Source of the DNA: a virus
Taxonomy: Duplodnaviria > Heunggongvirae > Uroviricota > Caudoviricetes
Virus record (IMG/VR): IMGVR_UViG_2648501437_000028
DNA length: 15,331 nt
Direction: 5' to 3' (one strand)
Of the stretch, positions 1 through 15,331 are shown piece after piece. The first letter of the stretch is position 1; the number at the start of each line of letters is the position of its first letter. The notes beneath the pieces were generated by a model that searched no databases, was not told where the DNA came from, and worked only from the letters and a program-made list of their open reading frames with translations. The position numbers and the translations under genes are program-made.

Positions 1-165
1 ATGGCAAAGCCGATCATCACGCTCAATGGCCTAAAAATCGTCATTATGTTGGGAATGCTGGTCATTATTCTCTGCGGTATCCGTTTTGCCGCCGAGATCA
101 TCGTGCCGTTTATTCTCGCATTATTTATTGCTGTTATATATAACTTATTTCGCATAACACATTGA
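1..165 (+). pseudogene. tqsA: 5' fragment of tqsA (AI-2 exporter, YdgG); frame diverges after ~codon 45 and stops at 163-165, consistent with interruption by the inserted element
   Basis: Frame +1 from base 1 reads [45 protein letters not shown], which I recognise as the TqsA N-terminus, then IYNLFRITH-stop. Too short to appear in the ORF track. Confidence 0.55.
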
Positions 166-185
166 TTTAATTAAATAATTAACAC

Positions 186-233
186 CGCAAAAAGTGCCAA
201 AAATCGCAAAATGACTACACCAGTGACTACACC
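186..233. repeat. Phased A-tracts (CGCAAAAAGT GCCAAAAATC GCAAAAT) followed by tandem TGACTACACC x2 (212-221, 224-233)
   Basis: Read directly from the sequence; A5-6 tracts recur with 10-bp phase (bent-DNA signature), and a 10-bp direct repeat sits ~80 bp inside the inferred junction. Confidence 0.45.
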
Positions 234-251
234 GTTCGGTGCACTGTATGA

Positions 252-276
252 AACAACGTGGAACAAATAGACACAA
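252..276. promoter_or_regulatory. AACAA repeats phased at 10 bp (AACAACGTGG AACAAATAGA CACAA); the 15-mer AACAACGTGGAACAA is identical to 7715-7729
   Basis: Read directly; the same motif family recurs at 7713-7742 and, reverse-complemented, at 14021-14070. Confidence 0.45.
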
Positions 277-6341: not shown

Positions 6342-7499
6342 TTAATCGTCGTCCTGTGGCAGTTCCAGAATCTTGATCGCGTTCGAATCCACCACGCCAC
6401 CGCCTAAATATTTCTGCGTGAAAATTTTGATGAAGCCCGGCTCTGTGAGGTTGTCCGGTCTGGTGCGAACACCTGTTTCGTGATCAACAATGTAGTAACC
6501 GCGTTTGAAGTCACCCAGGGCAATAACGTTATCCGGCATAAACTCCAGATATTCGACCGGAAGGCCCAGTAACGTATCAGGATCACCCGCCTGTAAACGG
6601 TCGCGCCAGATGTAATCACCGTTCGCGTTCTTCACCTTCTGAAGTTTTGCCGCCGTCGTGGAGTTAACCACCCAGACCGCGTTTTTGCGGTATTTTTTAC
6701 GTAATGCAAATTTCAGGTCGATCAGCGGGTCCGCAGATGTCCACGCCAGAGATTCGGAAGGTTTAATTACCTGCAACGTACCAAAATCACGCTCTTTGTC
6801 GTTCTTCTCTGCACGGGGTACGGATAAAAAGCCTTTTGCTTTTTTGTCACCGTCGCCCACAACCAGATCGCTTTCTTCGGTTTCCGTGAAGTTGTCGCCA
6901 ATCTCGCCCGTCAGCCATGAAAGGATGTCCACATCGGAAAAATCCACGATTTCCTGCGTGGTGCGCGGGTACGCATAGACCGGATACAGCTTAATGCTCA
7001 CCTCGTTAATCTGCGGGGTGCTGGTCTGTTCGCGTGCCTTACCCTCTTCACCGTGGTTAACGGTCGCACCGCCAGCGGAAACAAGCTGCTTAAACTCGTT
7101 GCTGCTGATTTTCTTCACGGTACAGATGCGGCGCATGGTGGATTCATCCGTCAGCATTCGCATGATTTCGGTGTTCAGTTCGGGGATAACGGTATAACCA
7201 CCATCAGCGGGAACGCCTGTACTTAATGCGCGGGTTTCACCTGTCAGAATGTAGTGACGTAGTTCGGCTGGGTCAGTGGTCTGACTGCTTTTACCTGGCT
7301 TGCTGCGCTCTTCGTCTGCAATGGCTTCAAGGCGGGAAATGTCTTTATCGAGGGATTCAGCTTTAGCGCGTAATTCGTCAAATTTTGCGCCCTCAGCATC
7401 GTTAAGACTGCGGTTTTCTTTTTCCGCGTTCTCCAGCATGTCGCGCATCTGATTTTTAATGGCGGTTTTCTGCTGGCGTAATTCGATTATTCTCGGCAT
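6342..7499 (-). CDS. Major capsid protein, HK97 fold, with N-terminal coiled-coil delta/scaffold-like domain
   Basis: 385 aa; charged, coiled-coil-like N-terminal ~100 aa (LRAKAESLDKDISRLEAIADEE) then a capsid-like body; no separate scaffold gene. Confidence 0.85.
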   Translation of the reverse strand: MPRIIELRQQKTAIKNQMRDMLENAEKENRSLNDAEGAKFDELRAKAESLDKDISRLEAIADEERSKPGKSSQTTDPAELRHYILTGETRALSTGVPADGGYTVIPELNTEIMRMLTDESTMRRICTVKKISSNEFKQLVSAGGATVNHGEEGKAREQTSTPQINEVSIKLYPVYAYPRTTQEIVDFSDVDILSWLTGEIGDNFTETEESDLVVGDGDKKAKGFLSVPRAEKNDKERDFGTLQVIKPSESLAWTSADPLIDLKFALRKKYRKNAVWVVNSTTAAKLQKVKNANGDYIWRDRLQAGDPDTLLGLPVEYLEFMPDNVIALGDFKRGYYIVDHETGVRTRPDNLTEPGFIKIFTQKYLGGGVVDSNAIKILELPQDDD

Positions 7500-7712
7500 A
7501 AAAAAAGTCCTGGGGTTAAGTAAGGAACTCCAGGACGCGGCAAAAACTCAACCGTTTTTCATAAGGAAATCAGCAATCGCACCGATCGTTTTCCCGCCTG
7601 GTAATGAATATTGGCGAGAACATTAACAGGCGGAAAAGTGGCCCCAGCGTCCTGGCACCACGGGCGAGAATAATCATGATTCAGTTCGGGTAAAATATGC
7701 CGATCCGCTCAG

Positions 7713-7742
7713 TGAACAACGTGGAACAACCACGAACAAATA
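7713..7742. promoter_or_regulatory. Three 10-bp units GAACAACGTG GAACAACCAC GAACAAATAA upstream of the capsid operon
   Basis: Read directly; shares the 15-mer with 252-266; lies between the terminator after the PerC-like gene and the capsid leader. Confidence 0.45.
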
Positions 7743-7761
7743 ATTTACAAAACATGACAAA

Positions 7762-7779
7762 AAGCCGGATTGCTCCGGC
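7762..7779 (-). terminator. Probable intrinsic terminator after the PerC-like gene
   Basis: AGCCGGA-TTGC-TCCGGCT stem-loop followed on the minus strand by TTTTTGT. Confidence 0.5.
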
Positions 7780-7786
7780 TGTGTGA

Positions 7787-8059
7787 TTATCTGTCCTGGT
7801 AATTTCGCCATATTTCATTACCAGCACCATCCATACCCATTTCGGCATAAGTGCGATCGACCGCCTTTTTCAGGTCTCCGTAGTTATCCGGCGGCTCCGG
7901 TGGCCTCTGTGCCTTCCTGGAACATTCCAGCCGTCGCATCGTGATGTGATGCCGTTCCTTGTCTGTCTCCACCAGTTGCATGACTTCACCCCATCGCGCC
8001 GACGCTCTCCGGTAAAAGCCTTTCGCCTCCAGTTCTTCCGCTATGCGGTCATGTACCAT
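7787..8059 (-). CDS. PerC-family transcriptional regulator-like protein
   Basis: About 90 aa from the ATG at 8059 (the track start at 8068 is GTG); AEELEAKGFYRRASARWGEVM resembles the PerC/Pch N-terminal signature; GAGGGGTGGGG Shine-Dalgarno upstream. Confidence 0.6.
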   Translation of the reverse strand: MVHDRIAEELEAKGFYRRASARWGEVMQLVETDKERHHITMRRLECSRKAQRPPEPPDNYGDLKKAVDRTYAEMGMDGAGNEIWRNYQDR

Positions 8060-8071
8060 CGTCCCCACCCC

Positions 8072-8804: not shown

Positions 8805-9030
8805 TTGTCTACCTTATCTACCTTAGTGGCCCTCATACCAGTAATGGCGCGGCTTTCAGCGGGGTAGAGTGCTTTTATCCACTATCTACCCCGTGTCTAC
8901 CTCCCTGTCTGATTCAGGTAAAATCAGGTAGAGAGGGTAGATAGTGGGTAGACAGTAAAAAAAGGTTATCTACCTAACTTAATGCACTGAATTAAATGTA
9001 TTTTTCTTTACTCAGGTAGACAGGGTAGAC
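8805..9030. repeat. Iteron array (about 12 copies of GGTAGAC/GTCTACC-type 7-8-mers in both orientations) with flanking AT-rich stretches; putative replication origin
   Basis: GTCTACC 8805, TATCTACC 8813, GGTAGAG 8861, TATCTACC 8881, GTCTACC 8893, CAGGTAGA 8923, GGGTAGAT 8933, GGGTAGACAG 8944, TTATCTACC 8964, CAGGTAGACAGGGTAGACAG 9011-9030; lies immediately 3' of the primase gene. Confidence 0.6.
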
Positions 9031-9045
9031 AGCAATTACAAAAAA

Positions 9046-10800
9046 TTATAAAAACGCGTCGCACTCGTCTGTTGTTATTGCGTTAGTCTGCGTTACTCCC
9101 TTAACTTTCCGCGTAATATATTCATGTCCGTAAACTTTCGCGGCTGGCTTCATAGCCTTGCCAAAGTCATTTACGTTTAGCGGTTTGCTCCTGCCTGCGT
9201 ACGCCATAAACGCCAGATAGACGCGGTAAAGGCTGTTTCTGGTCGTGTACTTCACTGAATCGCCACCGCCGCCCATCATCAGGCCGCGTGCTTCCTCCAG
9301 AAAATTCAGGAACTGGCAAAACTCAATAACCGGATCCGTCTGTTGCTTTATTGCCAGAGCTTCATCACCGTCACGCTGTTCCAGTAGTAAAGCCCGTGCC
9401 TTCTCAGGGTCGGTAAAGTTCGCCAGCAATCGGCGGATAATGACAGGGATTTCAGCCGCGATCTTTTCCGGTAGCTCCCTGTCTTTTTCGGCCTCACTGA
9501 CGATATTGTCGAAACGGAAAATCACGCGACGACGTGCCACACCTCCGGCCCGTTCGGTGAATATCATCGGGTTATTGTTGGTCGCCAGCACCACCGCCCT
9601 GATTACCGCCGTGAAACGCTTTTCGTATTTCGGGTTAATTTCCACGGGGTCACCGCCCGTGATTTTCTTGATGCCCGTTCCTTCGCCTGTATATTTCGGC
9701 TGGTCAGCCAGGACGATAAGACGACTCCCGACAACCTGCGCACGTCCACCAGCATCATCAAGCGATGTCATTTCAGCGCTTACCGTGTTCTGTTTCCCTG
9801 CCAGAAGGCTGGCTATGTGTGTGAATGTACTTTTACCGCTCCCGCCGTCTCCGGTGGCCTCAATAAACATCTGCCAGTCGTACCGGTTCGCCATAATCAT
9901 GTACAGCGCGGCACATATACGCATCATCTTGCGCGGGTCTTTTCCGGCTGCGTGCTCAAGCCATTTATGAAAGTTTGGCGCGTTATCGCGGATGTTCTCC
10001 CCTGGTGCTGGTGGCGTGTACTCAATGCCGTTGTGCGTGGTGATCCAGTTCTCCGGCGTGTGCGGGGAAAATTCCCCCGTTTTCAGGTCAAGCGCACCAT
10101 TGGCGAACGGCAACAAATCGCCGGACGGCTCGCCCATTGGTTCGGCAATAACTTTTAACGCTTCCACGGCGTTATTGATTACGCGCTTGCTGAAAGTGGC
10201 CCTGTGCTCTGAATAGATCGCCACCATTTCGCGGCTAAGTTCCATTGTGCTGACCGGACACCATACCCCGCCGCGCCATACGTGAACGATTTCACTTTCA
10301 GGATGTACGCAAACGCCATCAAAGCGATCGGCAAGCAGCTGCGCGCGCTCACTGTCCGCCATCTGCGAAAGTTGCGCCTTTTGCTTTACCGGAAGCTCAA
10401 TGACCAGACCATCAGAAAGATTCTGGCGCTCACGGGCCAGATATTCGCGCCAGTTCTCCACCTTCTGACCGTGCATACCATCAGGGTAAAAATTTGCATC
10501 CTGTACGCCTGCCGCCGCCAGCTTCTGACCAATCGCCTTTATCATTACTGGCGCAAGATATCCGGCCCTGAATATGCGCACGGATTTTCTGCCTTCCGGC
10601 ACAATTTGCAGCTTATCCAGTTCGGATAACTGCTGCTCCCCAAGCCACACAGGAGGCTCATTATCTCCGGCCATACGCGCGTCATGTTCCTGCCATTGTT
10701 TTGCGTGTGACCAGGCATCACTACCCGCAAAAATAATGACTTCTGTTTCTTTGTGTTTTATGCCGCGTGACTGCTGTTTTACGTTCGGTGCCAGTTTCAT
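9046..10800 (-). CDS. Primase/helicase, P4-alpha-like (TOPRIM-like N-terminus plus SF3/D5-type NTPase)
   Basis: 584 aa; Walker A GDGGSGKST, Walker B-like LIVLADQ; N-terminal acidic primase-like segment; ATGA overlap with the upstream gene. Confidence 0.8.
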   Translation of the reverse strand: MKLAPNVKQQSRGIKHKETEVIIFAGSDAWSHAKQWQEHDARMAGDNEPPVWLGEQQLSELDKLQIVPEGRKSVRIFRAGYLAPVMIKAIGQKLAAAGVQDANFYPDGMHGQKVENWREYLARERQNLSDGLVIELPVKQKAQLSQMADSERAQLLADRFDGVCVHPESEIVHVWRGGVWCPVSTMELSREMVAIYSEHRATFSKRVINNAVEALKVIAEPMGEPSGDLLPFANGALDLKTGEFSPHTPENWITTHNGIEYTPPAPGENIRDNAPNFHKWLEHAAGKDPRKMMRICAALYMIMANRYDWQMFIEATGDGGSGKSTFTHIASLLAGKQNTVSAEMTSLDDAGGRAQVVGSRLIVLADQPKYTGEGTGIKKITGGDPVEINPKYEKRFTAVIRAVVLATNNNPMIFTERAGGVARRRVIFRFDNIVSEAEKDRELPEKIAAEIPVIIRRLLANFTDPEKARALLLEQRDGDEALAIKQQTDPVIEFCQFLNFLEEARGLMMGGGGDSVKYTTRNSLYRVYLAFMAYAGRSKPLNVNDFGKAMKPAAKVYGHEYITRKVKGVTQTNAITTDECDAFL

Positions 10801-11918: not shown

Positions 11919-12351
11919 GGTGCACCTCCTGCACATCAGCCATGATAATTTTTCCGGCCTTATCCAGTGCCTGATCGGCTTTTAGCTGCACAAATGCTAA
12001 ATGGAAGATGCATTCTGATTCTCTGGCTGCGTGTTTATGCGCCCTGTCAGCAATAACAGAAATATCAATAAGCGCGTGCATCAGCGTAGTGAGCGCGGCG
12101 GCGGCTGCGTCCGGTGTGGTTTTATTGCACATGTACCCCTCCGCATTTTTTTCGTTAGAAATAAGCGTTCTTCTTTCCTGTTCATCGCTCAGGAATACGC
12201 AGACCTCACCGCTAAGGCGTTTAAGTAAGCCGATGATTGCCCCTGATTCGCTGTCGGTCATCATGCTAGGGTAATCCTCTGCCAGTGCGCAAATAACTTC
12301 GATTTGGTGGGCGCGTTCTGCTGCCTGTTGTAGTGTGATTTCCTGGCTCAT
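11911..12351 (-). CDS. Hypothetical 146-aa protein
   Basis: ORF track; ATGA overlap with the upstream 66-aa ORF. Confidence 0.5.
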   Translation of the reverse strand: MSQEITLQQAAERAHQIEVICALAEDYPSMMTDSESGAIIGLLKRLSGEVCVFLSDEQERRTLISNEKNAEGYMCNKTTPDAAAAALTTLMHALIDISVIADRAHKHAARESECIFHLAFVQLKADQALDKAGKIIMADVQEVHHA

Positions 12352-12548
12352 AAGCCTACCCCCTGACGAATACGGGCAGCAAATACCATCACGCAGCCAG
12401 CCGGAGATTGCTGGCGTGCTTCCTGTTCGCTGGTGGCCTCAATGGTAATCACGCGCGGTTGTGCCGTGCTCAGGGCGATAAAACGCCAGATGTATTTATT
12501 CAGGTTGTGCGAGTCCCGCCCTTGCGGGTGTGTGGTATGATTTCTCAT
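12348..12548 (-). CDS. Hypothetical 66-aa protein, first gene of the leftward operon
   Basis: ATG at 12548 preceded by GAGGTAG; it is the 3' part of the 384-aa track ORF, whose upstream extension I reject. Confidence 0.45.
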   Translation of the reverse strand: MRNHTTHPQGRDSHNLNKYIWRFIALSTAQPRVITIEATSEQEARQQSPAGCVMVFAARIRQGVGL

Positions 12549-12583
12549 AGCTACCTCGATACTCTCGTTATCGTTGGTGGTTA

Positions 12584-12724
12584 GAAGCCCCGTTACTGCT
12601 CCAACAGTGCGGGGCTTCGTCGTTTCAATTGCTGAATTGCATGTATCAGCACTTGTGGTATTCACATTACATTTAGGTGAATACCATTTCAAGTCTTTTT
12701 TGGTATTCACTTTTGTATTACACT
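12584..12724. promoter_or_regulatory. Divergent control region: long hairpin GAAGCCCCG...CGGGGCTTC (12584-12618) and operator-like repeats TGGTATTCAC-N11-GTGAATACCA (12656-12686), TGGTATTCAC (12701-12710), GTATTACAC (12715-12723)
   Basis: Read directly; lies between the start of the leftward operon (12548) and the start of the RHH gene (12754). Confidence 0.5.
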
Positions 12725-12753
12725 GCATCCCGTTATTAATGGGAGGTGCAAAC

Positions 12754-13059
12754 ATGTCCAGGAGTTCTGTTAACAATAAGTCACAGCAACTGAATGCCAG
12801 ATTTCCACATGAAGTAGTGAGTGGCATTGAGGCATCCCTACAGTCAGGGGAAACTAAAGCGAATTTTATAGTTACGGCTGTACGCGGTGAGATCGCCCGG
12901 CGCCAGGCAGAAGGAAGTGGAGAAAATCCCCTGGTTTCTTCGCTCGATGCACTGGCGCAGGTGGAAAAACTCGGAATCAAAGCCGCCGAGGAGATCGGGC
13001 AGCTCGTCACTGTCGCACGTGAAGAACTCCAGCGCCGCAAGACCAAAGAACCAGAGTAA
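12754..13059 (+). CDS. Ribbon-helix-helix (CopG/Arc/MetJ-like) DNA-binding protein; candidate repressor of the switch
   Basis: 101 aa from the ATG at 12754 (GGGAGGTG Shine-Dalgarno); N-terminal NARFPHEVVSGIEASLQSGETKANFIVTAVRGEIARR fits a beta-strand/helix/helix pattern; the track ORF starts further upstream at 12574. Confidence 0.55.
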   Translation: MSRSSVNNKSQQLNARFPHEVVSGIEASLQSGETKANFIVTAVRGEIARRQAEGSGENPLVSSLDALAQVEKLGIKAAEEIGQLVTVAREELQRRKTKEPE

Positions 13060-13116
13060 TCACCATCAGCGCCGTGGTGTAAGGTATTACGGCGCATTGC
13101 TATGCAGGACAACACA

Positions 13117-13290
13117 ATGACCGATAAAGAATTGACCAAAACATTATCACCGGCACGGAAAAGACGGCGCAGAAAGATAGAGCATGAATCAGAAAGATTC
13201 GCGCCATGTGCTTTTGCCCTTGAGCAATTCCTTAAAGAGTACAGGGAAAAGCGCTCATTGCAGGTATGGCAACGAACTGAACCAGACTGA
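13117..13290 (+). CDS. Small, highly basic 57-aa protein
   Basis: ATG at 13117 with AGGAC upstream (track ORF starts at 13102); contains the RKRRRRK run; function unknown. Confidence 0.4.
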   Translation: MTDKELTKTLSPARKRRRRKIEHESERFAPCAFALEQFLKEYREKRSLQVWQRTEPD

Positions 13291-13385
13291 TTGCATTGCC
13301 CACCAGCCTGATAACGGCTATCATCCCCGTGCTTATGTTTGGGATCACACACACAAACGGCGCAGCGGGTTATCTGTTCAGAAAG

Positions 13386-13413
13386 GCGGCTCCATTTCGG
13401 GGCCGCTTTTTTT
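13386..13413 (+). terminator. Intrinsic terminator, possibly bidirectional, between the convergent plus-strand pair and alpA
   Basis: GCGGCTCC-ATTTC-GGGGCCGC stem (one G-U pair) followed by TTTTTTT on the plus strand; A-run on the other side. Confidence 0.6.
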
Positions 13414-13559
13414 ATACCTGAAAAACCCCAATTTTGTTGTTTTTCAGTTTCACCAGGGCGAACGAATCCCCGCCCACGTTCTGGCGTATATTCAATCTTC
13501 ATGGTTATAGCTCTGTGTTCAGATGATTGATGTGTGGCGGCTGCGTGCCGCCAGCGTGA

Positions 13560-13748
13560 TTAATGAACTGCCTTGCAGCTATCCTTCCAGGCCAGAACCT
13601 CGGATAAAGACCAGCCAACGGAACGACCGCCAAGTTTACGACGTGATGGGAATTGTCCGGCCTTTTCCAGGCGGTAGCGACACGTACGGCTAAGGCCGGT
13701 TAGTTTTTCGCATTCTTTTTCACGTATAAACCGATCAGTGCTTAACAC
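13560..13748 (-). CDS. alpA: AlpA/Vis-family (excisionase-like) regulator
   Basis: LTGLSRTCRYRLEKAGQFPSRRKLGGRSVGWSLSEVLAWK matches the AlpA-type winged-HTH pattern. I prefer the GTG start at 13748 (AGGGGGG 5 nt upstream, ~62 aa) over the track TTG start at 13829. Confidence 0.7.
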   Translation of the reverse strand: MLSTDRFIREKECEKLTGLSRTCRYRLEKAGQFPSRRKLGGRSVGWSLSEVLAWKDSCKAVH

Positions 13749-14020
13749 TATTGCCCCCCTTTCGTTTCTTAAAGAGTCATCAGGTGTCTTATTGTGTCGT
13801 ATTGTTCCCGCTAGAGTGATGAATGGCAAATACTGAGGATGTATGATTTACAGAAAATGAAACAGTAAGAATAAAATCTTTTAAATTCATGTTAATACAA
13901 AGGCATAAAATATTGTTCCATGCCTTTTTTCTCGCTCTTTAAAGAGTGATTCGCTAGTGTACAAAAAACCAGTAACACATTAAAAATCAGCTACTTATAA
14001 ATCCGTACGCTTTTTCGCCT

Positions 14021-14070
14021 CTTGTTCGTAGTTGTTCCACATTGTTGCTCATTGTTGCACGTTGTATCTG
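14021..14070. promoter_or_regulatory. Five TTGTT-containing 10-bp units in tandem (CTTGTTCGTA GTTGTTCCAC ATTGTTGCTC ATTGTTGCAC GTTGTATCTG)
   Basis: Read directly; TTGTTCCAC is the reverse complement of the GTGGAACAA core at 258-266 and 7721-7729; located in the int-alpA intergenic region. Confidence 0.5.
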
Positions 14071-14080
14071 TTCGCATATC

Positions 14081-14096
14081 CAGTATGCGCATACTG
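14081..14096. promoter_or_regulatory. Perfect 16-bp palindrome CAGTATGCGCATACTG just 3' of the int stop
   Basis: Read directly; no T-tract on the side that would make it an int terminator, so more likely a protein-binding site. Confidence 0.35.
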
Positions 14097-14113: not shown

Positions 14114-15331
14114 TTATTTTCTTCTGGCTACGGGTAGCGTGGTTACGTTTTCATGTGTTCCCGCCAGTATCCCTAACCGCTCCGTCCACATATCCAGCGC
14201 ATTGCGTTTCGCATCCAGATAACGGGAATGATTATAAACTCGCTGCATTCCTGGCATCTGGTGGCCTGTAAGCTGCTCCACGACATGCGGATCAACGCCT
14301 AAATCGTTCAGCATGGTTGTAAAGGTGCGCCGGATGTCATGCAGTGACCAGTGAGGGTGATTAAGCCTCCTGTGCGCTAATCTTCCATACTGCGATACGC
14401 TGGCCTCCTGTTTCACTTCCCCCAGCAATAAGCCCGTGTGCCTGTTCTGCTCCACCAGCTGCGTGACGAACGGCAGGATCGCTTCCGGTATGGGCCGGAA
14501 TATTGCGACCTTCGTTTTGCTGTGCTCCTTCGGAACGGTCCATAGCATTTCCGTAAAATCCCACTCCCCGATCTCCGATAACCTCAGTTCTACCGTTCTG
14601 GCTCCGAAGACAATCAGGAGGCGGATTAACGCGACGTAGTAAGGGGAGAATATTTTTTTGTCCAGTGCCTGCAATAATTCGCCAAGTTCTTTGTTACTTA
14701 AGACACGTTCGCTTATATCCGGTTTTTTCCCAACGTCCGCAACGTTCAGATCGTCCAGAACGTTGCTGATTGCATAGCGCCGCCTACGGCAGAACTTAAG
14801 CGCCTGTTTGCACGCCTGTAGCACGAATCCGGCAGTAACAGGCGTTCGCTTTGCCACCTGGTCAAAACAGGCCAGCCAGTGCCGTAGCTCGCATTTATCC
14901 AGCGGCATAGCACCAATCTGCTGTATTACGTGATTATTAAGTCGCCTTTTCAGGGCGATATAATCCACGCGGTTTTCCTTTACGTAATACTCAAGCCAGT
15001 AGGTGAGCGCATCGCCAACCGTTACGGGCTTTAACGCTTCCTGTACGGTGTAATTCATCTCATGACGTGGATTTTTCCCCTCAGCCAGCCATGTGCGACA
15101 CTGTGCGGCTTTTTCCCTGGCTGCTTTCAGGCTCAGATCAGGATAACTTCCCAGCTTAATGCGTTCGGGTCGTGTCTCCCTTCCCGTTCCGGCCCTGTAT
15201 GTGAAATACCAGGTCAATTTCCCTGATGTTAAATATTTCACGCTCAGGTTTCCGCCATCACTATAAAACGTGTTTTTCTCCGCTGGCTTACCATGAAGTT
15301 TCCTTAGCAAGGTATCGCTCAGTTTGTTCAT
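14114..15331 (-). CDS. int: Tyrosine integrase (P4-like phage integrase family)
   Basis: 405 aa; C-terminal catalytic signature HDIRRT ... H ... RVYNHSRY (R, H-x-x-R, Tyr nucleophile); ATG is exactly at the window end. Confidence 0.9.
   Translation of the reverse strand: MNKLSDTLLRKLHGKPAEKNTFYSDGGNLSVKYLTSGKLTWYFTYRAGTGRETRPERIKLGSYPDLSLKAAREKAAQCRTWLAEGKNPRHEMNYTVQEALKPVTVGDALTYWLEYYVKENRVDYIALKRRLNNHVIQQIGAMPLDKCELRHWLACFDQVAKRTPVTAGFVLQACKQALKFCRRRRYAISNVLDDLNVADVGKKPDISERVLSNKELGELLQALDKKIFSPYYVALIRLLIVFGARTVELRLSEIGEWDFTEMLWTVPKEHSKTKVAIFRPIPEAILPFVTQLVEQNRHTGLLLGEVKQEASVSQYGRLAHRRLNHPHWSLHDIRRTFTTMLNDLGVDPHVVEQLTGHQMPGMQRVYNHSRYLDAKRNALDMWTERLGILAGTHENVTTLPVARRK

Follow-up and report, generated by a model that had tools for sequence, protein, structure and literature searches.

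Recombination directionality factors (RDFs) bind tandem, head-to-tail direct repeats that lie one helical turn apart (PMC7498355), and several of them (Apl, Cox, Vis, RdfS and TorI) also regulate promoters (PMC7498355, PMC11963761, PMC2951348). 186 Apl and P2 Cox recognise direct repeats both at att and at promoters, with five to seven units at a spacing of 10-11 bp, and in each case one small protein links excision to transcription (PMC7498355). The locus described here likewise has direct repeats at att and at candidate promoters, and we propose the same design for it; it differs in the protein family (AlpA, PF05930), in the repeated word (TTGTT) and in having one array before a capsid operon. 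Apl and Cox, moreover, repress the promoters of the lysogenic/lytic switch, whereas AlpA is a genetic activator (PMC6092414).

In the E. coli PICI EcCICFT073, AlpA activates PalpA and leaves Pint and int expression unchanged, and its overexpression without a helper phage leads to Int-dependent excision and replication (PMC6092414). PICI AlpA is remotely related to P4 Vis, and its role has been described as control of induction rather than excision (PMC6092414). Vis, which another E. coli satellite encodes and which is distantly homologous to AlpA, is required for excision (PMC6092414) and bends att DNA (PMC7498355). TorI, a winged-helix RDF acting at KplE1 attL, has five sites in two blocks beside the Int arm sites; three close sites abut the -35 of the intS promoter and have the cores GTTCG, GATCG and GTCCG (PMC2951348). 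These cores resemble TTGTTCG, a frequent unit in the element studied here, in which an array likewise sits just upstream of int. TorI sites are known from attL alone, whereas here there are internal arrays too, and TorI represses intS, unlike AlpA in EcCICFT073. RdfS of ICEMlSymR7A, also a winged-helix RDF, binds attP upstream of intS as well as its own promoter and oligomerises along DNA (PMC11963761). It has no consensus motif and represses its own promoter, whereas the arrays reported here show a clear pentamer and AlpA autoactivation has been published (PMC6092414).

Two further systems invite comparison. The P. aeruginosa antiterminator AlpA, which we liken to the island protein by their common name and not by Pfam family, works with a promoter DNA element and an intrinsic terminator that precedes the first gene (PMC7969949). 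The capsid leader of our element similarly has a candidate terminator (hairpin plus U7) before its first gene. The P. aeruginosa binding element, however, is GGGACG-N5-GGTA and lies between -35 and -10 (PMC7969949); we saw no sequence likeness between it and the TTGTT units, three to five of which lie upstream of or overlap a candidate -35 here, with the proximal site at alpA overlapping a candidate -10. Helper-embedded PICIs (HE-PICIs), in turn, carry a doubled attP motif, tgTGTATTGCantgTGTATTGCa, in two co-oriented copies ~81 and 132 bp from the attP centre (PMC10111431). This resembles the arrangement in the circular form of our element, where a doubled motif would lie ~144 bp from the core on the int side and ~89 bp from it on the far side, and one relative, L053, carries the exact HE-PICI motif. 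The HE-PICI study reported no helically phased pentamer arrays and stated the doubled motif to be absent from other PICIs (PMC10111431), whereas we found a related doubled motif and TTGTT arrays in PICIs as well as cf-PICIs of E. coli. The searchable literature yielded no account of where AlpA binds in either kind of element, and the array set presented below is, as far as we found, undescribed for this element; its design would be of the already known Apl/Cox/Vis/TorI/RdfS kind, with phased operators at att and at promoters.

The element and its phased pentamer arrays

The window analysed here is a 15,331-nt stretch of DNA recorded as a Caudoviricetes virus (IMG/VR record IMGVR_UViG_2648501437_000028). 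Judged by its sequence, it is an EcCIEDL933-like capsid-forming PICI (cf-PICI) in E. coli, inserted in tqsA; its gene content and size match those described for EcCIEDL933 (10.1101/2022.09.08.507074). Pfam and RefSeq annotation identified int, alpA, a primase gene and the element's own capsid and packaging set within ~15 kb, with neither tail nor lysis genes. Every gene judged real lies on the minus strand (Table 1). The annotated start codon of int is 12 nt past the window end; alpA is followed by small Icd-like and hypothetical genes and a DUF4222 gene, ssb lies between the primase gene and perC in minus-strand order, and beyond the major capsid gene the packaging operon runs through prohead protease, portal, head closure, connector, HNH, TerS and TerL. 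The window opens with the first ~46 codons of tqsA. In FORC_069 (L001) the remainder of tqsA lies beyond the island, and tqsA fragments are annotated on both sides.

Among islands that are otherwise identical, the 'Bro/Icd' zone varies. Positions 12348-13502 of the window form one 384-aa ORF, and FORC_069 (L001 14524-16003) has split or pseudogenised Icd-like genes here, together with an opposite-strand YlcI/YnfO gene and ~330 extra bp relative to the window.

A first-pass annotation of the window had noted a 10-bp-phased AACAA/TTGTT repeat at three control points (the left junction region, the leader of the capsid operon and the int-alpA intergenic region) and had proposed these as plausible binding arrays for AlpA that tie excision to capsid gene expression. 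All three arrays are real. The 15-mer AACAACGTGGAACAA is the same at 252-266 and 7715-7729; AACAA recurs once per helical turn at 7715, 7725 and 7735 and at 252 and 262; and the reverse-complemented core fills five 10-bp units at 14022-14066, with TTGTT at 14022, 14032, 14042 and 14052 and TTGTA at 14062. Three control points proved to be an undercount, as there are five sites in all. Overlooked were a weaker proximal array, GGAACAAtacgaCACAA, at 13792-13808 and a fourth full array just upstream of int, which in FORC_069 (L001 17900-17934) maps 70-100 bp outside the window's right end, as well as a third unit, CACAA at 272-276, in the left array.

Table 1 Features of the window, in order of position; promoters, arm sites and control elements are candidates.
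Feature	Position	Strand	Description
att core identity block TGCTGTTAT	129..137		junction with the 5' tqsA fragment; 9-mer repeated at L001 18020-18028
doubled 12-bp motif ATGACTACACC-A-GTGACTACACC	211..233	+	putative Int arm-type sites, P' arm
P'-arm array	252..276	+	three units, AACAA, AACAA and CACAA; 10-bp period; kept at the far end of relatives
major capsid gene	6342..7499	-	PF05065, E 1.5e-61; opens the packaging operon
hairpin + U7	7500..7536	-	ends at the capsid AUG; Shine-Dalgarno AGGA in the 3' arm
two directly adjacent leader-RNA hairpins	7590..7661	-	first with a GACG loop
candidate weak promoter TTGTTC-16 nt-TATTTT	7692..7719	-	last repeat unit as -35; read from sequence
capsid-leader array	7715..7739	-	TTGTT x3 on the coding strand, 10-bp period
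conserved box TTTTGTAAATTAT	7740..7752	-	directly 5' of the array
intrinsic terminator after perC	7758..7780	-	just 5' of box and array; hairpin -13.2 kcal/mol
perC	7787-8068	-	
D5-type primase gene	9046-10800	-	
alpA	13560..13748	-	62 aa, GTG start (RefSeq/PGAP); PF05930, E 1.5e-16
proximal weak array GGAACAAtacgaCACAA	13792..13808	-	overlaps the -10 of the candidate alpA promoter
candidate PalpA TTGCCA-17 nt-AACAAT	13801..13829	-	found by consensus scan; both hexamers kept in L007 and L008
distal int-alpA array	14022..14066	+	five units, TTGTT x4 and TTGTA on the + strand; AACAA in gene direction
int	14114..15331	-	P4-type tyrosine integrase with arm-binding domain; PF13356 and PF00589

The pair AACAA-N5-AACAA occurs six times in the window, always at the three named places, as compared to 0.07 times in shuffled sequences (0 of 200 shuffles reached six). 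Triple-unit arrays, called at ≥13 of 15 positions, also number six and are all at the three named sites, against 0.035 in shuffles. The first-pass annotation had proposed a count of the motif in host DNA as a check of specificity. In ~161 kb of non-island E. coli DNA, composed of host flanks and a CFT073 prophage region, we found two pairs and no triples; arrays are hence not common in the sampled DNA, and isolated pairs do occur. The density of pairs was 0.39 per kb in islands versus 0.019 per kb in host flanks, a ~20-fold difference, and a simple frequency model gave ~0.03 chance triples per 5-Mb E. coli genome. When viral contigs were searched with TTGTT-N5-TTGTT-N5-TTGTT, PICIs made up 3 of 120 among the matches listed, which were mostly chance occurrences in AT-rich DNA (median GC 36%) and are uninformative on specificity within E. 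coli.

GGAACAA at 13913-13919 was treated as a chance occurrence and not as an array unit, because it sits in a hairpin loop and is not kept in L007 or L008. An identity of the arrays as replication-origin iterons was rejected since other repeats, of the GGTAGA type (8924-9032), occupy the probable origin and the TTGTT arrays lie elsewhere. The repeat TCAGGTAGAGAGGGTAGATAG, with its GGTAGA-type units, occurs twice (8924-8944 and 9012-9032) in the intergenic region that follows the primase gene, and these copies are probably the iterons of a replication origin.

We followed the arrays through relatives in complete E. coli genomes (L001, L007, L008, L009, L068 and L190, the last being EcCICFT073), in a Shigella flexneri genome (L002) and in 58 IMG/VR contigs found via the capsid protein; an AlpA-based search of genome contigs returned five loci, four of them too distant for use. 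The survey was seeded by two exact TTGTT units, and most arrays found have three or more. Arrays are conserved across ~50 relatives and are placed consistently with respect to the doubled motif, int, alpA and the capsid gene. They fall almost exclusively into five classes: upstream of int, at the far end, between int and alpA, in the capsid leader and shortly after alpA, the last of these seen only in L022. Within orthologous arrays the TTGTT cores are constant while the 5-nt spacers diverge, and the 10-bp register is exact over three to six units. The unit reads roughly TTGTT-C-S-N-C-G, with the information content of its core inflated by the TTGTT seeding.

This pattern bears on whether the arrays have a dedicated binder at all. 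They might instead be a phased DNA-bending sequence or a remnant of shuffling or duplication, with the 15-mer reflecting a recent copy and not selection. The islands are highly mosaic, the 15-mer is identical at 252-266 and 7715-7729, and chance triple arrays do exist in AT-rich viral DNA at database scale, all of which would suit such an origin; cores that stay constant while spacers diverge, an exact 10-bp register over three to six units, consistent placement across ~50 elements and an expectation of ~0.03 chance triples per E. coli genome all argue against it. We consider it highly improbable that the arrays lack a dedicated binder.

Doubled motif and arrays in the attachment arms

Both island ends carry a common, co-oriented 76-nt repeat that consists of a doubled 12-bp motif plus an array, with the layout GTGACTACACC twice, a spacer of ~18 nt and the AACAA array. 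The distance from doubled motif to array is 8-19 nt in both arms. Tandem pairs of the 12-bp motif are confined to the two element ends, and the internal array sites are without it. On the int side, the array is placed between the core and the doubled motif. The sites of lambda Xis also lie between arm sites and core.

The doubled motif varies with the clade of the N-terminal, arm-binding domain of Int, whereas the TTGTT arrays are constant across E. coli Int clades. It reads GGTGTAGTCAC in the window, GGTGTAGTTAAT in L007, L008, L009, L068 and L190, GTGTGGTCAG in L022 and L049, and TGTATTGC in L053. Comparison of individual islands separated the two proteins: L009 and L049 have identical AlpA and differ in Int and in doubled motif, while L022 and L049 have Int clade and doubled motif in common and differ in AlpA. 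The two doubled motifs provide four half-sites, which fits an Int tetramer. Given that the motif tracks the Int clade and that its four half-sites fit a tetramer, we assigned it to Int, for which it is probably the arm site, and the arrays to another binder. Integrase arm sites are expected to track the arm-binding domain and to occur in the att arms only; this is what we observed for the doubled motif and not for the TTGTT arrays.

The assignment could in principle be reversed, such that the TTGTT arrays are the arm-type sites of Int, their internal copies decoys or Int-dependent regulators, and the doubled motif the site of AlpA. Int does have an arm-binding domain (PF13356), arrays are present in both arms, and the HE-PICI authors left open whether Int or AlpA binds the doubled motif (PMC10111431). 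Yet it is the doubled motif and not the array that follows the clade of the Int N-terminus; L009 and L049 differ in Int and doubled motif despite an identical AlpA; the four half-sites are those fitting an Int tetramer; and Int is not known as a regulator of alpA, near which, as at the other internal sites, the doubled motif is missing. The reversed assignment therefore appears very unlikely to us.

AlpA as the proposed binder of the arrays

Structure prediction shows AlpA to have an excisionase-type winged-helix fold (model pLDDT 86). The best match of the model is the GIsul2 excisionase 8C3T (TM 0.79/0.85), a PDB entry for which we found no citing paper in the literature, and further matches are RdfS (8DGL) and Pukovnik Xis. 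The arrays, for their part, have the hallmarks of RDF operators: they are head-to-tail repeats with an exact 10-bp period and three to six units per site, they are placed in the att arms beside putative Int arm sites, and the element that carries them encodes a small winged-helix RDF, as judged by predicted fold.

EcCICFT073, located at roxA-phoQ, connects the arrays to published genetics. Its Int and AlpA are the same proteins as in L007, its AlpA shares 94% identity with the window's, and it has arrays upstream of int, between int and alpA (distal and proximal) and at the far end. It follows from the EcCICFT073 genetics that AlpA must act on the region of the alpA promoter and, in the simplest view, on att as well, and the arrays are the only repeated motif that we found common to these two regions. 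From this combination of sequence, predicted fold and genetics we infer AlpA to be the binder, and we regard it as reasonably likely that the TTGTT/AACAA arrays form an operator set bound by this protein.

AlpA types A, 9 and 9b (58-66% identical, with type 9 at 66%) go with the same TTGTT core and are similar in the recognition-helix region; with one core shared by all three, protein and site show no fine covariation. L053, whose AlpA is ~50% identical and has a different recognition helix, is without TTGTT arrays, and its Int has diverged too. The idea of plausible AlpA operator arrays is supported in part, by RDF geometry, by the AlpA fold, by the presence of arrays in both arms and by their independence of Int clade, and is weakened by the type-9 islands (L009, L044, L049 and L068), which have no TTGTT array upstream of alpA. 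Type-9 islands have arrays at the arms and, where they are cf-PICIs, at the capsid leader as well. No array was found upstream of alpA in L022 either, and arrays appear to have been repositioned between lineages.

In the int-alpA region of type-9 islands, the TTGTT array is replaced by AATATC x3 at a 10-bp period just after int (L044 1292-1317, L068 12830-12870). L022, a cf-PICI with AlpA type 9b, has TTGTT x3 at 2551-2575, just after alpA and ~45 bp upstream of the next gene. The window itself contains a perfect 16-bp palindrome, CAGTATGCGCATACTG, at 14080-14095, with the int stop codon on one side and the distal array on the other; no conservation of this palindrome was found in L007 or L008.

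Between int and alpA, the distal array has three to six units, with variable spacers, in nearly all type-A AlpA relatives. It counts against the AlpA assignment that this array runs, relative to transcription, in the reverse direction to the int and capsid arrays and is ~130-190 bp away from the candidate promoters. At the proximal site, CACAA units with a 10-bp period are kept in L007, L008 and L190. AlpA monomers would be expected to bind head to tail, one per 10-bp unit and all on a single helix face, and to bend the DNA. In the att arms, AlpA at the array beside an Int-bound doubled motif would help to assemble the excisive complex; upstream of alpA, the known positive autoregulation would run through the distal five-unit array and the weak proximal one.

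The arrays might instead be bound by something other than AlpA, for example a host winged-helix response regulator of the same type as PhoP, OmpR, PhoB or CpxR, the factor with which a helper phage induces alpA, or an island protein such as DUF4222 or, at the capsid leader, PerC; the Icd-like and YlcI/YnfO proteins, likewise conserved in the islands, may be binders as well. Response regulators bind direct repeats overlapping the -35, and the TTGTT core is identical whatever the AlpA type. The PhoP box, however, is TGTTTA with an 11-bp period and the CpxR box is GTAAA, both unlike TTGTT at a 10-bp period. As to island proteins, DUF4222 is present in every island examined and perC lies directly upstream of the capsid-leader array, but the arm arrays are kept in L068, which has no annotated perC, and in the decayed islands L008 and L009, which have lost it; PerC was consequently rejected as a general binder. 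The mode by which helper phages activate alpA is undescribed (PMC6092414), leaving room for an inducer that binds the arrays, whereas AlpA alone, without helper phage, triggers excision in EcCICFT073 (PMC6092414). Finally, arrays in both att arms beside Int sites occupy the position expected of an RDF. Taken together, a binder other than AlpA seems unlikely.

The capsid-operon leader

Only three of the E. coli-type cf-PICI leaders compared lack the capsid-leader array, which accompanies every AlpA type. Of the seven distinct cf-PICI leader types that were aligned, six clearly have the box directly 5' of the array, and L058 has a degenerate form of it. The box is kept even where the downstream repeats differ between lineages: it is followed by TTGTT x3 in the window, by TACCC x3 in L057 and by TTACCC x2 in L050 and L052, the latter two then having a terminator. 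The repeats in the L058 leader are TTCAC and resemble origin iterons.

These lineages limit what can be generalised from the leader. The TACCC repeats of L057 were absent from the regions checked near int and the RDF-like gene. As the TACCC/TTACCC word of the L057, L050 and L052 leaders did not turn up close to int or to the RDF-like gene, repeats in a leader are not necessarily RDF sites, and an extension of that equation to other cf-PICI lineages failed (TACCC in L057, TTCAC in L058). Neither of the two classical PICIs examined, EcCICFT073 (AlpA type A) and L068 (AlpA type 9), has an array in front of its lambda-type capsid genes, implying that the array belongs to the packaging module described here.

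The last repeat unit of the array coincides with the -35 of a candidate promoter, and the divergent leader of L056 retains the TTGTTC and TATTTT hexamers and their spacing. A consensus promoter scan did not detect TTGTTC-16-TATTTT; any such promoter would therefore need an activator. From its sequence, the capsid leader looks like an activator-dependent promoter with direct repeats in place of the -35. In pho boxes, direct repeats stand in for the -35, and P4 Vis also binds near the P4 late promoters. At the capsid operon, the three units would reach the -35 of the weak promoter, and AlpA might switch on or license late transcription.

Such control of the capsid operon by AlpA in the E. coli lineage is plausible and is the least secure part of our proposal. 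The tie between excision and capsid expression that the first-pass annotation had drawn is weakened by the lack of a capsid array in EcCICFT073 and L068 and by the different word in L057. We accordingly put forward the coupling of excision to capsid expression as a hypothesis.

The leader RNA (~190 nt) is strongly structured (fold z-score -3.57). An alignment of the leaders of the window, L049, L056, L050, L051, L052 and L057 revealed compensatory changes across cf-PICI lineages in 8 of the 20 pairs of the twin hairpins. No Rfam family matched the twin-hairpin leader, and no match to the capsid leader was found in the phage collection searched. The twin hairpins may be a cis-acting RNA element, possibly put-like. 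The hairpin abutting the capsid AUG (-14.1 kcal/mol, z-score -4.16) is kept with a compensatory change in L056 and could be a terminator or a hairpin for translational control.

On a different reading, the leader would be a self-contained antitermination cassette that gates the whole packaging operon at elongation, made up of the box, lineage-specific repeats (TTGTT here, TACCC elsewhere), the twin hairpins and the AUG-abutting terminator. AlpA loaded at the array might then act as a processive antiterminator, Q-like or like P. aeruginosa AlpA, or the twin hairpins might act as a put-like RNA that renders RNA polymerase resistant to terminators. We think such a cassette, taken as a whole, quite unlikely.

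For the island family, the preferred reading of the arrays as AlpA operators matters in several ways. Genetics has defined AlpA as the master switch of Gram-negative PICIs, and the arrays offer it defined candidate DNA targets; a pentamer array at five places, while unsurprising to a specialist, is directly and cheaply testable. Together with the doubled motif, the arrays separate probable RDF sites from probable Int arm sites in attP, and they give this group of PICIs a sequence signature by which its att arms and regulatory regions can be annotated. Their distribution suggests that in a capsid-forming satellite one small protein may couple excision, autoinduction and late gene expression.
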